Notes under the pieces: generated by a model | The model's database searches: none | Told to the model about the DNA's origin: nothing | The model's input: only the letters and a program-made list of their open reading frames with translations | Program-made: the position numbers and the translations under genes | Assembly (NCBI GenBank): GCA_963790475.1 | Contig: CAWBOS010000015.1 | Span: 480,001 to 544,000, forward strand | Length of the DNA: 64,000 bases | Direction of reading: 5' to 3' | Source: an uncultured delta proteobacterium | GTDB taxonomy: Bacteria > Desulfobacterota > RBG-13-43-22 | Shown: positions 631-33,997 of the stretch, in pieces | Position numbering within the stretch: position 1 is the first letter of the stretch | How the letters are laid out: each line of letters opens with the position of its first letter

Positions 631-2049
631 TTATCCGGTTCGGCGGCGGAGGTATTTGTAGTATTGAAGGGCATTTCTCAAGGCCTGGGCGCACCGCTCG
701 AAGGAAAGAAAAACCGGGATGCCCATACCCTGCAAGTTGAACATGATATCTTTTATTTCCTTTTCGGCATCGGGATTATAGAGCATGGACACAACCATCA
801 GGGGTTTGGAGTTTCTTTTCTTGACACTGTCCAATAGGTCCCTGGCCCCTTTCATTTGTTCGGGTGTGAAATGCCACCCCGGTTTCGTGGAAACAAAATA
901 AACCAGATTGTCAATATGGGGATCCTGGGCGACGATATCCATAACCCGTTTCATATCCCTTCGAACCGGTCCGGCGGAATCGATGGGATTACGGTAACTG
1001 CCTCCCACGGGTCCGAAGAAGGTCTCCAGTTCATCATAGGATTCCTGGGTAAGCTGGGGCACATTCAGCCCGGATTCGGCAAAAATGTCGGTGGCGGTCA
1101 CGGAGTGGCCTCCCGGCCCTCCGGCAATGGCCACCCTTTTTCCTTGAATAGCGGGAAGAAAGAGTAAGGCCTTCAGGGTATCGATCAGTTCCTCCAGGCT
1201 GGTCACCTGCAGGGCTCCACATTGATTGATTGCCGAATCCCAGATGTCCCTGGACGAGGCCAGGGACCCGGTGTGGGAGGCCGTGGCCCGCCCGCCTTCC
1301 TCCGTTCGTCCGCCCTTCCAGAGGACCACCGGTTTTCGAGCGGCCACCTCCTTCAATACGGAAAGAAAATGACGGCCGTTCTTCACCCCTTCCAGATACA
1401 TGCCGATGCCCTTGATTTCCGGGTCCTGGCCGAAATACTCCAGGAAATCCGGTGAATCCACCACTACTCCATTGCCGAAGCTCACCGATTTGTTGATGTC
1501 CAACCCCTGATCATGACCGTCCAGGCTGAAGGCAATGGCAATGCTCCCGCTCTGAGAAATAAAGCCCAGGGGACCGGAAGCACCAGTATATTGCTCGGCG
1601 CTCTGTTTTATCCCCACCCGGGGATTGAACAGCCCCATGCAATTGGGACCGATGAGATGAAACCCGGCCTTTTCCGCCTTTTTCACCAGCCGTCGTTCCA
1701 GGATCATTCCTTCTTCGGTATTGGTTTCAGAAAAACCGGCACTGAAGAAATGGGCCGCAGCCACATCCTTGCGAATGCAGTCATCCAGAACTCCGACAGT
1801 CACATTTCTGGGTACAGCGACAATAGCCAGGTCCACAGGTTCGGGAATATCGACCAGGCTGGGGTAATTTTCGATCCCCAGCGCCTTGATATCCTCAAAA
1901 GATTTGGGATTGAGATGGACGGAATAAAGTTTTCCCTTAAACGATTGGTGAGCTTTCAGCCAGTTGAAGTTATTACTTTTGCTGTCCCCGACCACGGCCA
2001 CCACCCGTGGATTAAAGGCTCGATGCAATTTATCGAAATCGACTTTCAT
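631..2049 (-). CDS. Acyl-CoA synthetase (NDP-forming) alpha-like, CoA-binding protein
   Basis: GPNCMG, SQSG, SFGN and ASHTGSLA (phospho-His) motifs. Confidence 0.85.
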   Translation of the reverse strand: MKVDFDKLHRAFNPRVVAVVGDSKSNNFNWLKAHQSFKGKLYSVHLNPKSFEDIKALGIENYPSLVDIPEPVDLAIVAVPRNVTVGVLDDCIRKDVAAAHFFSAGFSETNTEEGMILERRLVKKAEKAGFHLIGPNCMGLFNPRVGIKQSAEQYTGASGPLGFISQSGSIAIAFSLDGHDQGLDINKSVSFGNGVVVDSPDFLEYFGQDPEIKGIGMYLEGVKNGRHFLSVLKEVAARKPVVLWKGGRTEEGGRATASHTGSLASSRDIWDSAINQCGALQVTSLEELIDTLKALLFLPAIQGKRVAIAGGPGGHSVTATDIFAESGLNVPQLTQESYDELETFFGPVGGSYRNPIDSAGPVRRDMKRVMDIVAQDPHIDNLVYFVSTKPGWHFTPEQMKGARDLLDSVKKRNSKPLMVVSMLYNPDAEKEIKDIMFNLQGMGIPVFLSFERCAQALRNALQYYKYLRRRTG

Positions 2050-2070
2050 GCCGAACTCCCTTTTTCATCA

Positions 2071-4030
2071 TAGGCGCTTAGTGAATCAACATCGACAAAA
2101 TTTTGTCGATAATATTATGCTGCCATTTTATAAATTTCAAAAATTTGTTGCATCTCATGTTGGATATTTTTGTAATGAATATCGATAGTAGAGAAGTTTC
2201 CAGGTTTTGGTCCGGGATGATGCTTTTCAGCGCCAGCGAGCAGAGGAATCAATATTTTTTCCCGCAGAACAAGGACAGCCGTCATCGAACGCAAGCCCAC
2301 CGGGGTGGCCATATAACAGCGCGAATGGCCGATCATTTGAACCAGATCTTTACCTCTAAACTTTTTCAAGTCATAAGAAGCCTGCCGAGCCTGATACCGG
2401 CTCTGCGGGATTCTGAGAATTTCCCGGACTTTTTCTGCCAGATTCGCAGCCGTAAATCCACGGGGATGGATAGAAAGAGCAATAACAGCTTCCATGACCG
2501 CCCGGATACGAGGCCGATTGATATCGACCCCTCCCACGGAGGTGGCTCCAACCTTAGAGGGCAGAGGCCACTTCTCCAAGGTACCGTTATCAATAAAAGA
2601 AACATCGACCCCGTTCAGAACGGTGAGGAATCTTTCCAGGACTTCTTTAAGGGATTCGCAGATCTGTGGGAAACGATCGATCCGTTTTCCGCAACGCAAC
2701 TGACTCGTATTGTGAATAATAACCTCGGTTCGGAGAACCCTTTCGCCTTTGCTATACATCTTGACCGTCATTTTTCCAAAATGGATTTTGAAGATCGTCA
2801 GATCATAGACAGGTCTCTCGACCGTGATCTCGAATCGAGGCAACGGTTTCTTGCCGTGATGACTGAATGGCCGGTGTCGATAGCCAAAAATAGTTCGAAC
2901 CGTCTTGAGATTCAAAGGGGCTCTGGTTCGATCGATCAAGCCCTGGAACACCTGATCCAAAGTTCGGCCTCGGTTAAAAAGCAGATTGCGGCTATACTCC
3001 ATCTGATAAACAGAATAACTGTAATGGAAGCCACTGGCTTTCTGCTCCGAAAGATCCAAGGCAAAACAAAGACAGGCCGAATAAATCCATTGATCGCAGG
3101 TCCGAACCAGACGCCCTACAGAGCACGAGGCCCTCATGGTATCCGCGATGTGGTCCAGACCTGCGCTATCGGTCACTGCCGTAAAGCAGTTACCTTCTTT
3201 AGTAAAGACAAGCCCTTGTTTCATGGCCTGACGGGATAGATATTCATGTCCGTTCAGGATGATCTGGGCATTAAAAGGAGGATGGGGACAGAGTTTGATG
3301 GTCAGATGTCCCCATTCCGGATCCATTATGTGGAACGAATAATGGTTGACATAGGGGTAAGGGGTCTTGGTGGAAATGTTACTGATCCCCCCGCTTTTAG
3401 ATCGCTGAATGTGGAAAAGGGGTGCCGGAGCAATCCCGGCCAGAATACAAAATACACCCCGAAAGTTCGGATCCCCGGGAATATATTGCTCGGCCACCTC
3501 GTGCTTTCGTTCACCGCGCTGGCAATGGATCAAGGGAATACCTTCTTTCTTAGCATAGGCATGAATCCGTCGGCTGAGTCGTCCGGCAAAACGCATCAGG
3601 TTGGTATCATTCAGATCGTTATCTGTTCCCTTCAAGGCCCGCCACCAGGTTCTAAATCCTCCAGGGGACTGGCCAAAAATGAAATAGGCATTGAGCACAA
3701 TACGATCAATACAATCATAAATGCCGTCAAGGTAGTCTTGATATTGCTTGCAAAATTCATCTGCCATGATCATCGGTCTTTCCCTGGTCGATCTTTTGAT
3801 ATGGAGGGCTCCCCAGTCATTGCCGGGGCCCCTTCTCGGCGGCTGCGAGAATGGGCCCCTGAGCGGCTCGTCGGAGCAGCCGCCTCAATTAGAGGTTCTT
3901 TTACAGCTAATATCGGGGCTACCCCTTAAGGGAAAGACCAGATTAAAGACTCCGGGCTTTTAAGTCAACTGCCCTGTTAGGGGCCACCTCTTCCGGGGAA
4001 CTCCCGGACGAGGCGTAGAATCTTATTAGG
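2071..4030 (-). mobile_element. Putative IS-like element, boundaries approximate
   Basis: Perfect 20-bp palindrome ATCGACAAAATTTTGTCGAT at 2091-2110 just past the stop; GC-rich hairpin leader at 3800-4020; TAGG at both 2071-2074 and 4027-4030. Confidence 0.45.
2115..3773 (-). CDS. Putative transposase/replication-initiator-like protein of an unclassified mobile element
   Basis: 552 aa; KMYSK...LRTE motif; C-terminal wHTH-like SYDLKKFRGKDLV segment; inserted between metabolic genes; flanked by a palindrome and a structured leader. Confidence 0.55.
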   Translation of the reverse strand: MIMADEFCKQYQDYLDGIYDCIDRIVLNAYFIFGQSPGGFRTWWRALKGTDNDLNDTNLMRFAGRLSRRIHAYAKKEGIPLIHCQRGERKHEVAEQYIPGDPNFRGVFCILAGIAPAPLFHIQRSKSGGISNISTKTPYPYVNHYSFHIMDPEWGHLTIKLCPHPPFNAQIILNGHEYLSRQAMKQGLVFTKEGNCFTAVTDSAGLDHIADTMRASCSVGRLVRTCDQWIYSACLCFALDLSEQKASGFHYSYSVYQMEYSRNLLFNRGRTLDQVFQGLIDRTRAPLNLKTVRTIFGYRHRPFSHHGKKPLPRFEITVERPVYDLTIFKIHFGKMTVKMYSKGERVLRTEVIIHNTSQLRCGKRIDRFPQICESLKEVLERFLTVLNGVDVSFIDNGTLEKWPLPSKVGATSVGGVDINRPRIRAVMEAVIALSIHPRGFTAANLAEKVREILRIPQSRYQARQASYDLKKFRGKDLVQMIGHSRCYMATPVGLRSMTAVLVLREKILIPLLAGAEKHHPGPKPGNFSTIDIHYKNIQHEMQQIFEIYKMAA

Positions 4031-32546: not shown

Positions 32547-33997
32547 GGCCGCATCCGGCTTTTTCATGGGTATCCCCAATATGTTGTGTTTATTGAGGTT
32601 TGAATCTTAATGTTGGACAAGTTGGCTGTAGGGGAAATAACTTCAATCCACCACAATGAAAATATATTGCTGTTCGGTAGTGGGATCGATTTCGAAATCC
32701 ACAGGCCAATCGCTTGACCTTTTCTATTTTAGCATTGATACTTTCTCCCAGAGCATTGGTGATTCGATGTCTGGCATAAGTGACGATATTGTCGATATGA
32801 GTTTTTAGAGTATTGGCTGCTTTGATGACCGGGGCTAACCGTGAATGGGTTGCCCAAAAATACCATCGCTGAAAATAATGACGCATATGCGCCTCATAAC
32901 GGTAATCCCACAAATGTCGAATGTTTTCTTTAATAGCCCAAGCTCGGCAAACGCGCAGATCTTTCATCCGAAGCGTTTCAAATTCTTCTCTTCTCCATTC
33001 CGGAATATTCTCTTGACTCCACAACCACAGATACTTGGTCCCCTTCAGCACGGCCTCTCCTTGCTCGGAAAGCAATCGATGTTCATTCTTTCTCACTTTA
33101 TCCACGGCTTCCAGAACGTACTTCATGATGTGAAAACGATCAAAGACGATCTTTTTTTCCGCTCCAGGAATATAGGCCTTGGTGGCCGCAATATAGGGAT
33201 CCCACATGTCCATAGCCACGGCCTGGACTCCGGCCAACTCCTCATGGCTAAACTGCTGATAATAGCTTTCCAGACTTTCCTGTTTCCGATCATCAATAAC
33301 GTACTCAACCGTTCCGTTGTCCAGGTCATATACCAAGGATTCATATTTATGTCCTCGGGCAATAGCCTTTTCATCCACCCCAATACGGGACGGTATGCGA
33401 TGCTCTTTCCGGGACAATCCCCTGATAACAGCTCGTTCCAATGTATTCCAGCTCTGATCCCAGCTCAGACTGCACAGCCTGCCGGTAGCCTCAATACTGC
33501 ATTCTCGGGCTATTCGAATAACAAGGCTTTCAAAGGCATAGGTCATTTCCGAACCATTTTCTCCGAGTTCAGAAGTAATCTGTTTAACTCCATGATCAGG
33601 ACAATTAACCCGAGGCGTCCGAACATGAATATAGGTGGCCATCTGGCAGGTGTCCAGATGCCGATAAATTCTTTCCGGACTATGATCATAAACCCCATAA
33701 AACTGATCACACTCCGGGCATCTTACTTGTATGTCCTTTTCATGATCAAGATAGATGTCCACCCGTTGCTCCGCTTCATTAAGAATCACCCTGGTGATCA
33801 TCCAGGGGGGATGCAGTCCCAGCAGTTTGTAAAAAAAGGTCTTGTCGTCCATCCCTCTTTCTTTGCTAAAGTCTTTATGTTTTATTTTTTAATAAAAAAG
33901 CGGCTGCGAGAATGGGCCCCTAAACGGCTCGTCGGAGCAGTCGTCTTCCATTGTACCACAACATGTTGGGGGCACCCATGAAAAACCCGGGAGCCCC
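32547..33997 (-). mobile_element. ISL3-family insertion sequence
   Basis: ~41-bp imperfect terminal IRs (GGCCGCATCCGGCTTTTTCATGGGTATCCCCAATATGTTGTG / GGGGCTCCCGGGTTTTTCATGGGTGCCCCCAACATGTTGTG); 7-bp DR GAAAAAA at 32540-32546 and 33998-34004. Confidence 0.9.
32590..33852 (-). CDS. ISL3-family transposase
   Basis: CPEC zinc finger, GVDE, MDMW..Y, FDRFH, TNALGESIN.KI...KR.A.GFRN motifs. Confidence 0.95.
   Translation of the reverse strand: MDDKTFFYKLLGLHPPWMITRVILNEAEQRVDIYLDHEKDIQVRCPECDQFYGVYDHSPERIYRHLDTCQMATYIHVRTPRVNCPDHGVKQITSELGENGSEMTYAFESLVIRIARECSIEATGRLCSLSWDQSWNTLERAVIRGLSRKEHRIPSRIGVDEKAIARGHKYESLVYDLDNGTVEYVIDDRKQESLESYYQQFSHEELAGVQAVAMDMWDPYIAATKAYIPGAEKKIVFDRFHIMKYVLEAVDKVRKNEHRLLSEQGEAVLKGTKYLWLWSQENIPEWRREEFETLRMKDLRVCRAWAIKENIRHLWDYRYEAHMRHYFQRWYFWATHSRLAPVIKAANTLKTHIDNIVTYARHRITNALGESINAKIEKVKRLACGFRNRSHYRTAIYFHCGGLKLFPLQPTCPTLRFKPQ

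Follow-up and report, generated by a model that had tools for sequence, protein, structure and literature searches.

A portable structured hairpin module shared by unrelated mobile elements of environmental bacteria

Two mobile elements and their hairpins

The window (the whole stretch of 64,000 nt that was analysed) holds two mobile elements, both with their gene on the - strand and both with one copy of a hairpin motif on the opposite strand. The features are:

2071..4025, - strand: IS_A, a multi-copy element, truncated in the window at its gene-upstream end (4025)
2115..3773, - strand: 552-aa ORF of IS_A, a putative recombinase or transposase
3835..3887, + strand: motif copy 1, invariant core 3843-3879 (covariance-model match, 64.1 bits), made up of the outer stem GGCGGCTGC/GCAGCCGCC, the internal loop GAGAAT/GTCGGA, the inner stem GGGC/GCTC and an apical loop
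3882..3906, + strand: small hairpin and T-run, GCCTCAATTAGAGGT TCTTTTACAG, directly after copy 1 (mapped from positions 1544-1558 of the identical copy L001)
32548..33997, - strand: complete ISL3-family insertion sequence with ~40-bp inverted repeats at 32548-32588 and 33956-33997
32590..33852, - strand: ISL3 transposase gene, 420 aa (Pfam DDE_Tnp_ISL3, 1.8e-67, and Zn_ribbon_ISL3)
33875..33899, no strand assigned: A/T-rich run between the ribosome-binding site of the transposase gene and copy 2
33896..33948, + strand: motif copy 2, within the ISL3 element, core 33904-33940 (covariance-model match, 66.7 bits)

The carrier of copy 2 belongs to the ISL3 family. Its transposase scored 293.6 bits against the NCBIfam model transpos_ISL3 (cut-off 180), inverted repeats are present, and both the window element and a second genomic copy are flanked by target duplications of 8 bp (GAAAAAAG and ATTATTAA, respectively), which we take to be a hallmark of ISL3. 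Here the motif is flanked on one side by the right inverted repeat and on the other, at a distance of 48 nt, by the ATG of the transposase gene (33852). Read on the - strand, the A/T-rich run is a U-tract directly after the hairpin; the run was found in related ISL3 copies and is absent, like the motif, from an ISL3 element (L242) that is 70% identical.

Four other copies of IS_A, of ~2160 bp each, were found in the genome. The 552-aa ORF had no match in Pfam or NCBIfam and is thus assigned to no recognised transposase family, and no Pfam family was found for its Atlas clusters. More than 5854 homologues exist, labelled "hypothetical" or mis-named and mostly located on contigs of ~2 kb. A Foldseek search with the full model (pLDDT 71.8), which covered the N-terminal 270 residues only as part of the whole, returned nothing at E up to 0.001; residues 395-518 alone matched winged-helix proteins (Z 9-10, VIA-align), and the protein is predicted to have a C-terminal winged-helix domain. 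The sequence-only reading had taken both carrier genes for transposases, a name that stands for the ISL3 gene and becomes a putative one for the 552-aa ORF.

The ATG of this ORF is at 3773, and copy 1 precedes it by 66 nt. The small hairpin and T-run beside it look like a terminator on the + strand. Relatives retain GAG(G/A)TT(T)CTTTTAC 3' of the motif, and at the corresponding site of a relative 58% identical to the 552-aa element there is a plain long hairpin.

Sequence, fold and strand preference of the motif

The 41-nt string at 3839-3879 occurs a second time at 33900-33940 with two mismatches, as the sequence-only reading had noticed; both mismatches fall in the apical loop (GAG to AAA region). 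The likeness extends to 48 nt, with GCAGCCGC in copy 1 against GCAGTCGT in copy 2, and 0 such recurrences were expected from 100 dinucleotide shuffles. The same reading had held the carriers to be otherwise unrelated, and BLAST against the genome agreed, showing only 41-42 nt in common to the two regions; the 552-aa protein and the ISL3 transposase had no similarity (best E 1.7). It was also correct in assigning G-U pairs of the ISL3 copy to the + strand, where the 3' arm GCAGTCGT gives two of them. The sister of copy 2 found at another locus of this genome reads GCAGCTGT and relatives read GCAGCCGC.

The motif is built around an invariant core of 28 nt, CTGC-GAGAAT-GGGC-loop-GCTC-GTCGGA-GCAG. 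Its CUGC/GCAG closing pairs lead into a 6x6 internal loop rich in purines, GAGAAU/GUCGGA, and then into an inner stem of 4 bp, one pair of which is a fixed G.U. The apical loop is free, and the outer stem varies from 4 to more than 17 bp, free in sequence but complementary. GAGAAT was recovered in 96 of 100 unique metagenome matches when the 5' loop was left free, and no change of GTCGGA was seen in searches allowing 3 mismatches; the apparent invariance is partly by construction and divergent members are under-sampled, because the database patterns fixed one or both loops.

Covariation was strong, with a score of 0.363, compared with 0.115 in shuffles (none of 500 reached 0.363) and 0.10-0.145 when the partners were slid. 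Outer pairs 5-8 were paired in ~100% of cases with 4-6 pair types each, and the related elements L064 and L092 have wholly different yet perfect 17-bp stems. Of the fold originally proposed, covariation backs the outer stem and four base pairs of the inner stem; the fifth inner pair has to be given up, being unpaired in 28 of 52 rows.

Folding favours the + strand. The inner-stem G.U was present in 51 of the 52 rows, the variable stem had 8 G.U against 0 A.C, and U-tracts after the hairpin were more frequent on the + strand (29/146 instances) than on the - strand (4/146), with 113/146 having none on either strand. The + fold was the stabler one in 133 of 135 hairpins, by a mean of 7.0 kcal/mol. 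Calculated values for the + and - strands were -31.0 and -24.2 kcal/mol for copy 1 and -22.5 and -10.8 kcal/mol for copy 2.

Distribution and genomic context

The genome contains seven copies of the motif, all within the two unrelated elements (ISL3 and IS_A), and no solitary copy was found in it with the covariance model. Two of the seven lie on the G-rich and five on the C-rich strand, a distribution without pattern, and a fixed orientation to replication was rejected. Genome and metagenome searches together yielded 173 unique instances in 82 flank contexts; the carriers are many environmental bacteria, belonging to several phyla according to MAG labels. In one Luteolibacter MAG, palindromes with 39-nt arms were observed at contig ends; these may be assembly fold-backs and were excluded from the evidence.

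Rfam 15 contained nothing at the motif at either window locus (E up to 10), the sole row being CRISPR-DR15 (21.2 bits) elsewhere, and gave 0 rows for eight further loci covering all context classes (48 kb, E up to 1). No match was obtained among 72,556 PLSDB plasmids (distant mode) or in IMG/VR. Full-text literature searches gave no description of the motif or of a module common to ISL3, IS110 and tyrosine-recombinase elements, and the motif lists of Weinberg et al. (2010, 2017) were covered by proxy, through the Rfam scans.

A recombinase gene was located within 700 nt of the motif in 99 of the 173 instances. The flank was long enough to judge in only 9 of the other 74, and the association, at 99 of 108 judgeable instances, is tight. 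The neighbours, with gene families confirmed by Pfam, were a tyrosine-recombinase pair (54), IS110 (26), ISL3 (13), the 552-aa family (4) and others (2). At least five unrelated mobile-element families carry the module in non-coding subterminal DNA, and in every class it is found near gene ends and element ends. The motif and the recombinase gene were on opposite strands in 94 of the 99 instances, a bias that at the level of independent classes amounts to only ~5 to 2. Among the exceptions is a second ISL3 clade (3 instances), which has the motif in sense orientation between IRL and ATG. In tyrosine-recombinase and IS110 elements it is located beyond the 3' end of the gene.

The motif is a portable, optional part of its elements. 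Of the other loci examined, all 28 of ISL3, one of them 70% identical, and all six of the 552-aa family lacked it; it was present in carrier-family members only 55% and 20-25% identical and was kept in transposase-less, ISL3-derived MITEs of ~200 bp. An IS110-type end, GGGGTCACCCATTAAAAGG, was tried as the inverted repeat of a MITE and rejected, its inverted partner being found in 0 of 12 loci. The tyrosine-recombinase carrier is a 2.3-kb element with two tyrosine recombinases. By eye, these elements have an outward promoter-like TTGACA-17-(C/G)AGAAA, and GTTAGAT-like words occur 3' of the stem with no complementary 5' partner.

The motif is thus a real, portable structured module, a member of a hairpin family not catalogued before. 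The sequence-only reading had supposed a conserved, strand-specific module shared across IS families, and had named as counter-signs a known Rfam family, confinement to the two places in the window, and scatter without association to transposases. The covariation, the empty Rfam scans, the 173 instances and the tally of neighbours and their orientation all came out on the side of this part of its proposal.

Possible functions of the module

In IS10/Tn10, a stem-loop RNA (RNA-OUT) is made opposite the transposase gene near its 5' end; with the help of a host chaperone, this RNA restricts the synthesis of transposase. The motif in the window is likewise on the opposite strand and next to the 5' end of the gene, and the reading that we prefer, at a probability of roughly 0.35, is that it works as a + strand RNA, either as an antisense regulator of its carrier or as a transcript end. 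In the window elements such a transcript would run antisense to the leader of the transposase gene, with the hairpin as its stable 3'-proximal body and the invariant purine-rich loop as the place where a conserved host factor, protein or RNA, docks. By construction, the RNA 5' of the hairpin would be complementary to both the start codon and the ribosome-binding site of the carrier gene. By acquiring the module in antisense orientation, an element would thus obtain a ready-made antisense regulator or transcript end, whichever transposase it encodes.

The parallel with RNA-OUT has limits. RNA-OUT serves its own element only and extends over the start codon, whereas the motif ends 48 nt (ISL3) or 66 nt (552-aa ORF) upstream of the ATG, is identical in unrelated elements, and is also found beyond the 3' ends of other recombinase genes. 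An RNA that starts further upstream could overlap the ribosome-binding site or start codon. The picture of an anti-ribosome-binding-site RNA on a scaffold is inapplicable to the tyrosine-recombinase and IS110 elements, because in these the motif is situated past the gene's 3' end.

In three studies, metatranscriptome contigs span 3673-4020, including the motif; they are weak evidence of transcription, being unstranded, uninformative on transcript ends and level, and open to DNA carry-over. One 138-nt metatranscriptome insert with adapter remnants, from a library of unstated type and with an unassignable strand, spans 3742-3879. A consensus promoter scan of the two regions was empty for IS_A and, on the + strand, for ISL3 as well. 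A + strand promoter abutting the hairpin found no support, as -10-like boxes just upstream of it were not enriched across the 82 contexts. Against a regulatory RNA stand also the MITEs, which keep the motif without any gene to regulate, and the presence of a + strand U-tract in only 29/146 instances.

With 26 instances of the motif in IS110-family elements, a relation to their guide RNAs was considered. The IS110 bridge RNA or seekRNA (Hiraizumi et al. 2024; PMC11208158) is a structured non-coding part of the element with internal loops, and in this the motif resembles it. The bridge loops are programmable, element-specific and on the recombinase strand, whereas the loops of the motif are invariant and on the opposite strand; the motif also occurs in elements that have no IS110 recombinase.

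A different possibility, which we hold somewhat doubtful but consider first among the alternatives, is that the module acts as single-stranded DNA. Its + strand would fold when unwound, at the replication fork, in copy-out replication or on entry by conjugation or transformation, and the hairpin would be recognised by a host enzyme. The strand-specific fold, with wobble pairs only on the + strand, the existence of long perfect stems and the retention of the motif by gene-less MITEs all agree with this. Single-strand origin cassettes are said to be portable and optional, and the module is comparable to them in both respects. The 5' arm, CTGCGAGAATGGG, reads directly as TGn + NANAAT + GGG, a pattern like that of an extended -10 element and a G-rich discriminator, left unpaired by the internal loop; a similar hexamer is seen by eye in the outward TTGACA-17-(C/G)AGAAA site of tyrosine-recombinase elements. 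The module might thus act like Frpo, ssi or sso, as a promoter or priming signal in hairpin form; with the + strand as template, it would direct transcription leftward into the gene in both window elements.

It has been pointed out by Weinberg et al. (2017; PMC5737381) that motifs of single-stranded DNA and of RNA are hard to separate bioinformatically. Samuel et al. (2024; PMC11541004) present Frpo as a hairpin that mimics a duplex promoter; it is longer than the motif, contains -35, -10 and UP elements, and is found in plasmid leading regions. As in Frpo and ssi, a one-strand DNA hairpin would present promoter elements to the host RNA polymerase, with the 5' arm of the motif in the place of an extended -10. 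However, TGnGAGAAT is present without a conserved -35 element, and the arm in which the latter is expected is free in sequence. The motif is also absent from the plasmids of PLSDB (0 of 72,556), including any conjugative leading region among them, and from IMG/VR. GTCGGA, the loop opposite, varies no more than the -10-like one, which a promoter leaves unexplained, and the two non-consensus G of GAGAAT are almost never T (GAGAAT in 96/100). The seven genomic copies share no GC-skew orientation (2 G-rich, 5 C-rich), the predicted direction of transcription misfits the second ISL3 clade, and no need for second-strand synthesis is known for tyrosine-recombinase elements.

It is improbable that the module serves chiefly as a transcription stop or insulator beside a promoter or gene end, blocking transcription into or out of the element, with the conserved core as an especially efficient or factor-assisted hairpin. 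The position near gene and element ends in all classes would fit, as would the terminator-like site adjoining copy 1 and the plain long hairpin at the same place in the 58%-identical relative. In the window ISL3 element, the - strand reads as a hairpin followed by TTTTTTATT just upstream of the transposase start. The features of an intrinsic terminator were found at copy 1 and, as + strand U-tracts, in 29/146 instances, including 3 of 4 in the 552-aa family (4/146 on the - strand). They are missing in most contexts: 113/146 instances have no U-tract on either strand, only 8 of 53 in the tyrosine-recombinase class have one, and none of the three in the second ISL3 clade. Furthermore, ordinary terminators are not conserved in sequence across phyla and have no need of 12 invariant unpaired bases.

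REP and REPIN sequences with their RAYT are short imperfect palindromes that are repeated and recognised as single strands; they are numerous, intergenic and genome-specific. The folded integron site attC consists of a stem, an unpaired central part, a short stem and a variable loop. That the module is a selfish mini-element or recombination site of either type, with a hairpin that is recognised by an enzyme encoded elsewhere (an HUH Y1 transposase or a tyrosine recombinase) and has been placed in non-coding DNA of other mobile elements, is the least probable of these explanations, and the "tiny hitch-hiking element" of the sequence-only reading found little support. Its spread is patchy within transposase families, the core is invariant and the arms variable, 54 of 99 instances lie beside tyrosine recombinases, and the layout recalls a folded attC. 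Yet all seven genomic copies are inside two IS types, with none solitary, unlike the many intergenic copies flanking a Y1 gene in REP/REPIN systems, and the same core is found across phyla. A Y1_Tnp gene was located within 700 nt in just one of 99 instances (92 nt away), the other Y1 genes being 1.6-1.9 kb off, past an IS110 gene. Neither a target duplication nor a shared insertion junction was observed, and the 4-bp inner stem is too short for a recombinase-binding arm.

In Weinberg et al. (2017; PMC5737381), attC appears as the "Transposase-resistance motif", which was caught by RNA-motif methods yet acts as single-stranded DNA. It shares with our motif a strand-specific hairpin, unpaired central bases, a variable terminal loop and a link to tyrosine recombinases. 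Whereas attC keeps its structure and short core sites at the base, the motif has an invariant centre and a free base; by eye, no RYYYAAC and GTTRRRY pair at its base, the outer-stem bases being unrelated sequences. The motif also comes without a cassette array or R''/R' cores and occurs with DDE and DEDD transposases as well.

Significance and structural comparisons

As a rule, the cis-acting signals of an insertion sequence occur in its own family only. The presence of the same 28 invariant bases in at least five unrelated mobile families points to a shared, undescribed host function. A bolder and rather unlikely proposal is that the hairpin is a universal "handle", captured by DDE, DEDD, tyrosine-recombinase and unknown-family elements and read by one conserved host machine. 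In keeping with the preferred reading as a + strand RNA, the handle might be a portable small-RNA scaffold that makes any flank a stable antisense regulator. In the other, equally bold version, it might be a single-strand-specific promoter or priming signal, on only when the DNA of the element is single-stranded (during replication or cell entry), and would switch on recombinase expression or second-strand synthesis.

A partner, if found, would explain how a single mechanism restrains or activates very different transposons in sediment and groundwater bacteria. The catalogue of structured nucleic-acid motifs would gain a new family, and the motif could serve as a compact portable scaffold or signal. 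Its carriers are themselves poorly known, among them a 2.2-kb element whose very abundant protein fits no known family and the 2.3-kb element with two tyrosine recombinases.

Several other identities were considered by eye and rejected. A sigma-54 promoter on the - strand (GG-N10-GC) was discarded, since the -24 GG falls at varying and covarying positions (e.g., GGGCT/AGCTC). The K-turn, the sarcin-ricin/loop E motif, the 11-nt receptor, the hammerhead core, loop A of the hairpin ribozyme (AGAA/GUC) and a tRNA T-arm after a long stem did not fit. Loop E of the 5S rRNA of this genome, GGGAGAGUAGGAC / CCGAUGGUAC, loosely resembles GCGAGAAUGGGCC / CUCGUCGGAGC of the motif and is given here as a lead only.

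Recurrence of the motif and its carriers

A 41-nt structured motif had been claimed, in the sequence-only reading, to be common to the leaders of two unrelated transposase genes. The string is indeed present at 3839-3879 and occurs again at 33900-33940 with 2 mismatches (0 expected, 100 shuffles). Similarity between the two copies extends to 48 nt (copy 1, GCAGCCGC; copy 2, GCAGTCGT). The flanks are otherwise unrelated, as only 41-42 nt are common to both regions in BLAST against the whole genome, and the two adjoining proteins also proved unrelated on comparison. The fifth inner-stem pair proposed earlier was not conserved in the pair counts of a 52-row alignment.

Features carrying the two copies in the window
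2071-4025: IS_A, a multi-copy element with motif copy 1; this copy is shortened, ending at 4025
2115-3773, - strand: 552-aa ORF, the sole ORF of IS_A
32548-33997: complete ISL3 element, holding motif copy 2
32590-33852, - strand: ISL3 transposase (Pfam and NCBIfam)

The ISL3 element has inverted repeats of ~40 bp and a target duplication of 8 bp, and copy 2 lies 48 nt upstream of the transposase ATG and 9 nt internal to the inverted repeat. IS_A is present in five genomic copies (full length ~2160 bp), and no terminal inverted repeats are visible in its family. The 552-aa ORF had no match in Pfam or NCBIfam, its family being without a model in either; more than 5854 homologues were found, annotated as hypothetical and mainly from ~2 kb contigs. 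In the predicted structure, a C-terminal winged helix was the only domain recognized by fold, and the N-terminal domain was well predicted and of no recognized fold. The protein is a putative transposase because this repeated element has no other ORF, and IS_A may represent an undescribed insertion-sequence family. Immediately after the motif, IS_A carries a small terminator-like hairpin and T-run. At 3772-3792 on the + strand (1434-1454 of L001, an identical copy of this region), a hairpin with G.T-wobble pairing only on that strand precedes a T-run and coincides exactly with the ribosome-binding site and start codon used by the opposite-strand 552-aa ORF; it is terminator-like toward antisense transcripts.

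Anatomy and covariation

Across 52 distinct aligned rows, the invariant core consists of CTGC, GAGAAT (5' loop) and GGGC, 8 to 11 free bases, then GCTC, GTCGGA (3' loop) and GCAG. Beyond CTGC/GCAG the outer stem continues for 4 to >17 bp, with complementary arms whose sequence is unrelated from context to context. Alignment pair counts gave 87.7% paired cells versus 73.7% in shuffles, and the covariation score was 0.363, versus 0.115 in shuffles (0/500 reached it) and 0.10-0.145 with slid partners. Both-side changes were observed in 8 of the 12 outer-stem pairs; the four inner-stem pairs are nearly invariant, with the compensatory variants GGGTC/GACTC and GGGCT/AGCTC. Part of the loop invariance arises by construction, since the search patterns held one or both loops fixed; GAGAAT was retained in 96/100 unique hits though that scan left the 5' loop free, and GTCGGA was constant in all searches allowing 3 mismatches. 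One divergent second copy kept GTCGGA and not GAGAAT. No match was found in Rfam 15, a check that the first reading had called for. We conclude that the motif defines a new family of hairpin modules, portable and with a strongly constrained core.

Optional presence and neighbouring genes

The motif was absent from all 28 other ISL3 loci in a 301-genome sample, including one with a 70%-identical transposase, whose leader is shorter by ~100 nt, and from 6 of 6 other IS_A-family loci. The exact core is present in ISL3 relatives at 55-57% identity and in IS_A relatives at 20-25%. Two distinct ISL3-derived MITEs (~200-210 bp) retain it; loci L021/L027/L031/L034 and L038/L093 are MITEs with both inverted repeats and the motif and without transposase. 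Transposase-less copies of a second ISL3 clade retain it as well. One ISL3-derived MITE sits between genes of a hydrogenase-like operon, oriented as those genes.

A recombinase gene was found within 700 nt in 99/173 instances; just 9 of the 74 instances without one have 1.5 kb of sequence on both sides.

Neighbouring genes (number of instances)
Tyrosine-recombinase pair (386 aa and 291 aa): 54
IS110 family: 26
ISL3, window's clade: 10
IS_A family: 4
ISL3, second clade: 3
Y1_Tnp: 1
HTH protein: 1

In 94 of the 99, the neighbour gene and the fold are on opposite strands. In ISL3, IS_A and the Y1 case the motif precedes the start codon by 51-178 nt, and it lies past the stop codon in tyrosine-recombinase elements (~31-75 nt) and IS110 elements (52-500 nt); in the second ISL3 clade it is in sense orientation, in the IRL-to-ATG interval.

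The tyrosine-recombinase pair belongs to a 2.28-kb element with TGTACGTAATA termini. Its two genes overlap (locus L078, oriented 902-3190, and ~50 further loci), it carries an outward promoter-like site, TTGACA-17-(C/G)AGAAA, and several copies occur within individual MAGs; we know of no named IS family with this design. At L008, L022 and L216 an IS110-type gene lies 52-66 nt from the motif. Among these loci and L060, L121, L150 and L196, one IS110-family lineage directly abuts an ISL3-like inverted repeat and another lies immediately downstream of Y1_Tnp (RAYT-like) genes, which suggests IS110 elements whose targets are REP-like sites or the termini of other mobile elements.

Folding strand and possible function

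The fixed G.U pair of the inner stem (51/52 rows) favours the + strand, as do the four always-paired variable columns, with 8 G.U versus 0 A.C; this count takes in the window ISL3, which reads TCGT, and the sister copy, which reads CTGT, their relatives having CCGC. The + strand fold was more stable in 133/135 hairpins, and a T-run followed the hairpin in 29/146 instances on the + strand versus 4/146 on the - strand. These preferences, and the terminator-like hairpin and T-run after the motif in IS_A, are as compatible with single-stranded DNA as with RNA. Action as RNA is tentatively ranked first of four readings (probability about 0.35), because the purine-rich loop could form tandem G.A pairs, the T-runs differ between strands and the arrangement is antisense to the gene. 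Action as single-stranded DNA, including an extended -10 hairpin promoter, shares the strand evidence and is placed second, as a rather doubtful candidate. A terminator or insulator comes third and is improbable: twelve unpaired bases, with the pairs that close them, do not vary between element families, and a generic hairpin (terminator, cruciform) is therefore insufficient. A selfish site, ranked last, also seems a poor prospect. None of the four explains all classes of context. The invariance requires a specific reader of the loop that is available in all hosts.

Metatranscriptome contigs from three studies cover 3673-4020 of the window and others, from other elements, match the motif alone; both sets are unstranded, with DNA carry-over possible.

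Distribution

Among the 21 genomes of the window's family, which is coextensive with its order and class, the motif is confined to the window's genus (5/14 genomes, including this one), and an even sample of the phylum gave 8/401 genomes in five families. When 185,579 species genomes were scanned for the exact pattern, 70 loci were detected, the majority labelled Thermodesulfobacteriota or 'delta proteobacterium' and the remainder Verrucomicrobiota, Kiritimatiellae, Omnitrophota, Oscillatoriaceae, Brevinema and Bacteroidales; the labels are those of MAGs, and mobile-element contigs can be mis-binned. A scan of metagenomes that placed no constraint on the 5' loop gave at least 119 loci. The collection totals 173 unique instances, with 82 flank clusters among the 141 with enough flank. 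No match was found in PLSDB or IMG/VR. In L079 and other Luteolibacter MAG contigs, the ends are perfect palindromes whose 39-nt arms enclose the motif core, probably assembly fold-back at the hairpin repeat and not real sequence.

The window's own genome holds seven copies (five in IS_A, two in ISL3), and a covariance-model search of it found no others. Besides one good 5S rRNA gene (99.8 bits), this genome has three weak 5S-like matches clustered on contig C6 (775313-775439, 777726-777835 and 694923-695007; 54, 40 and 32 bits).
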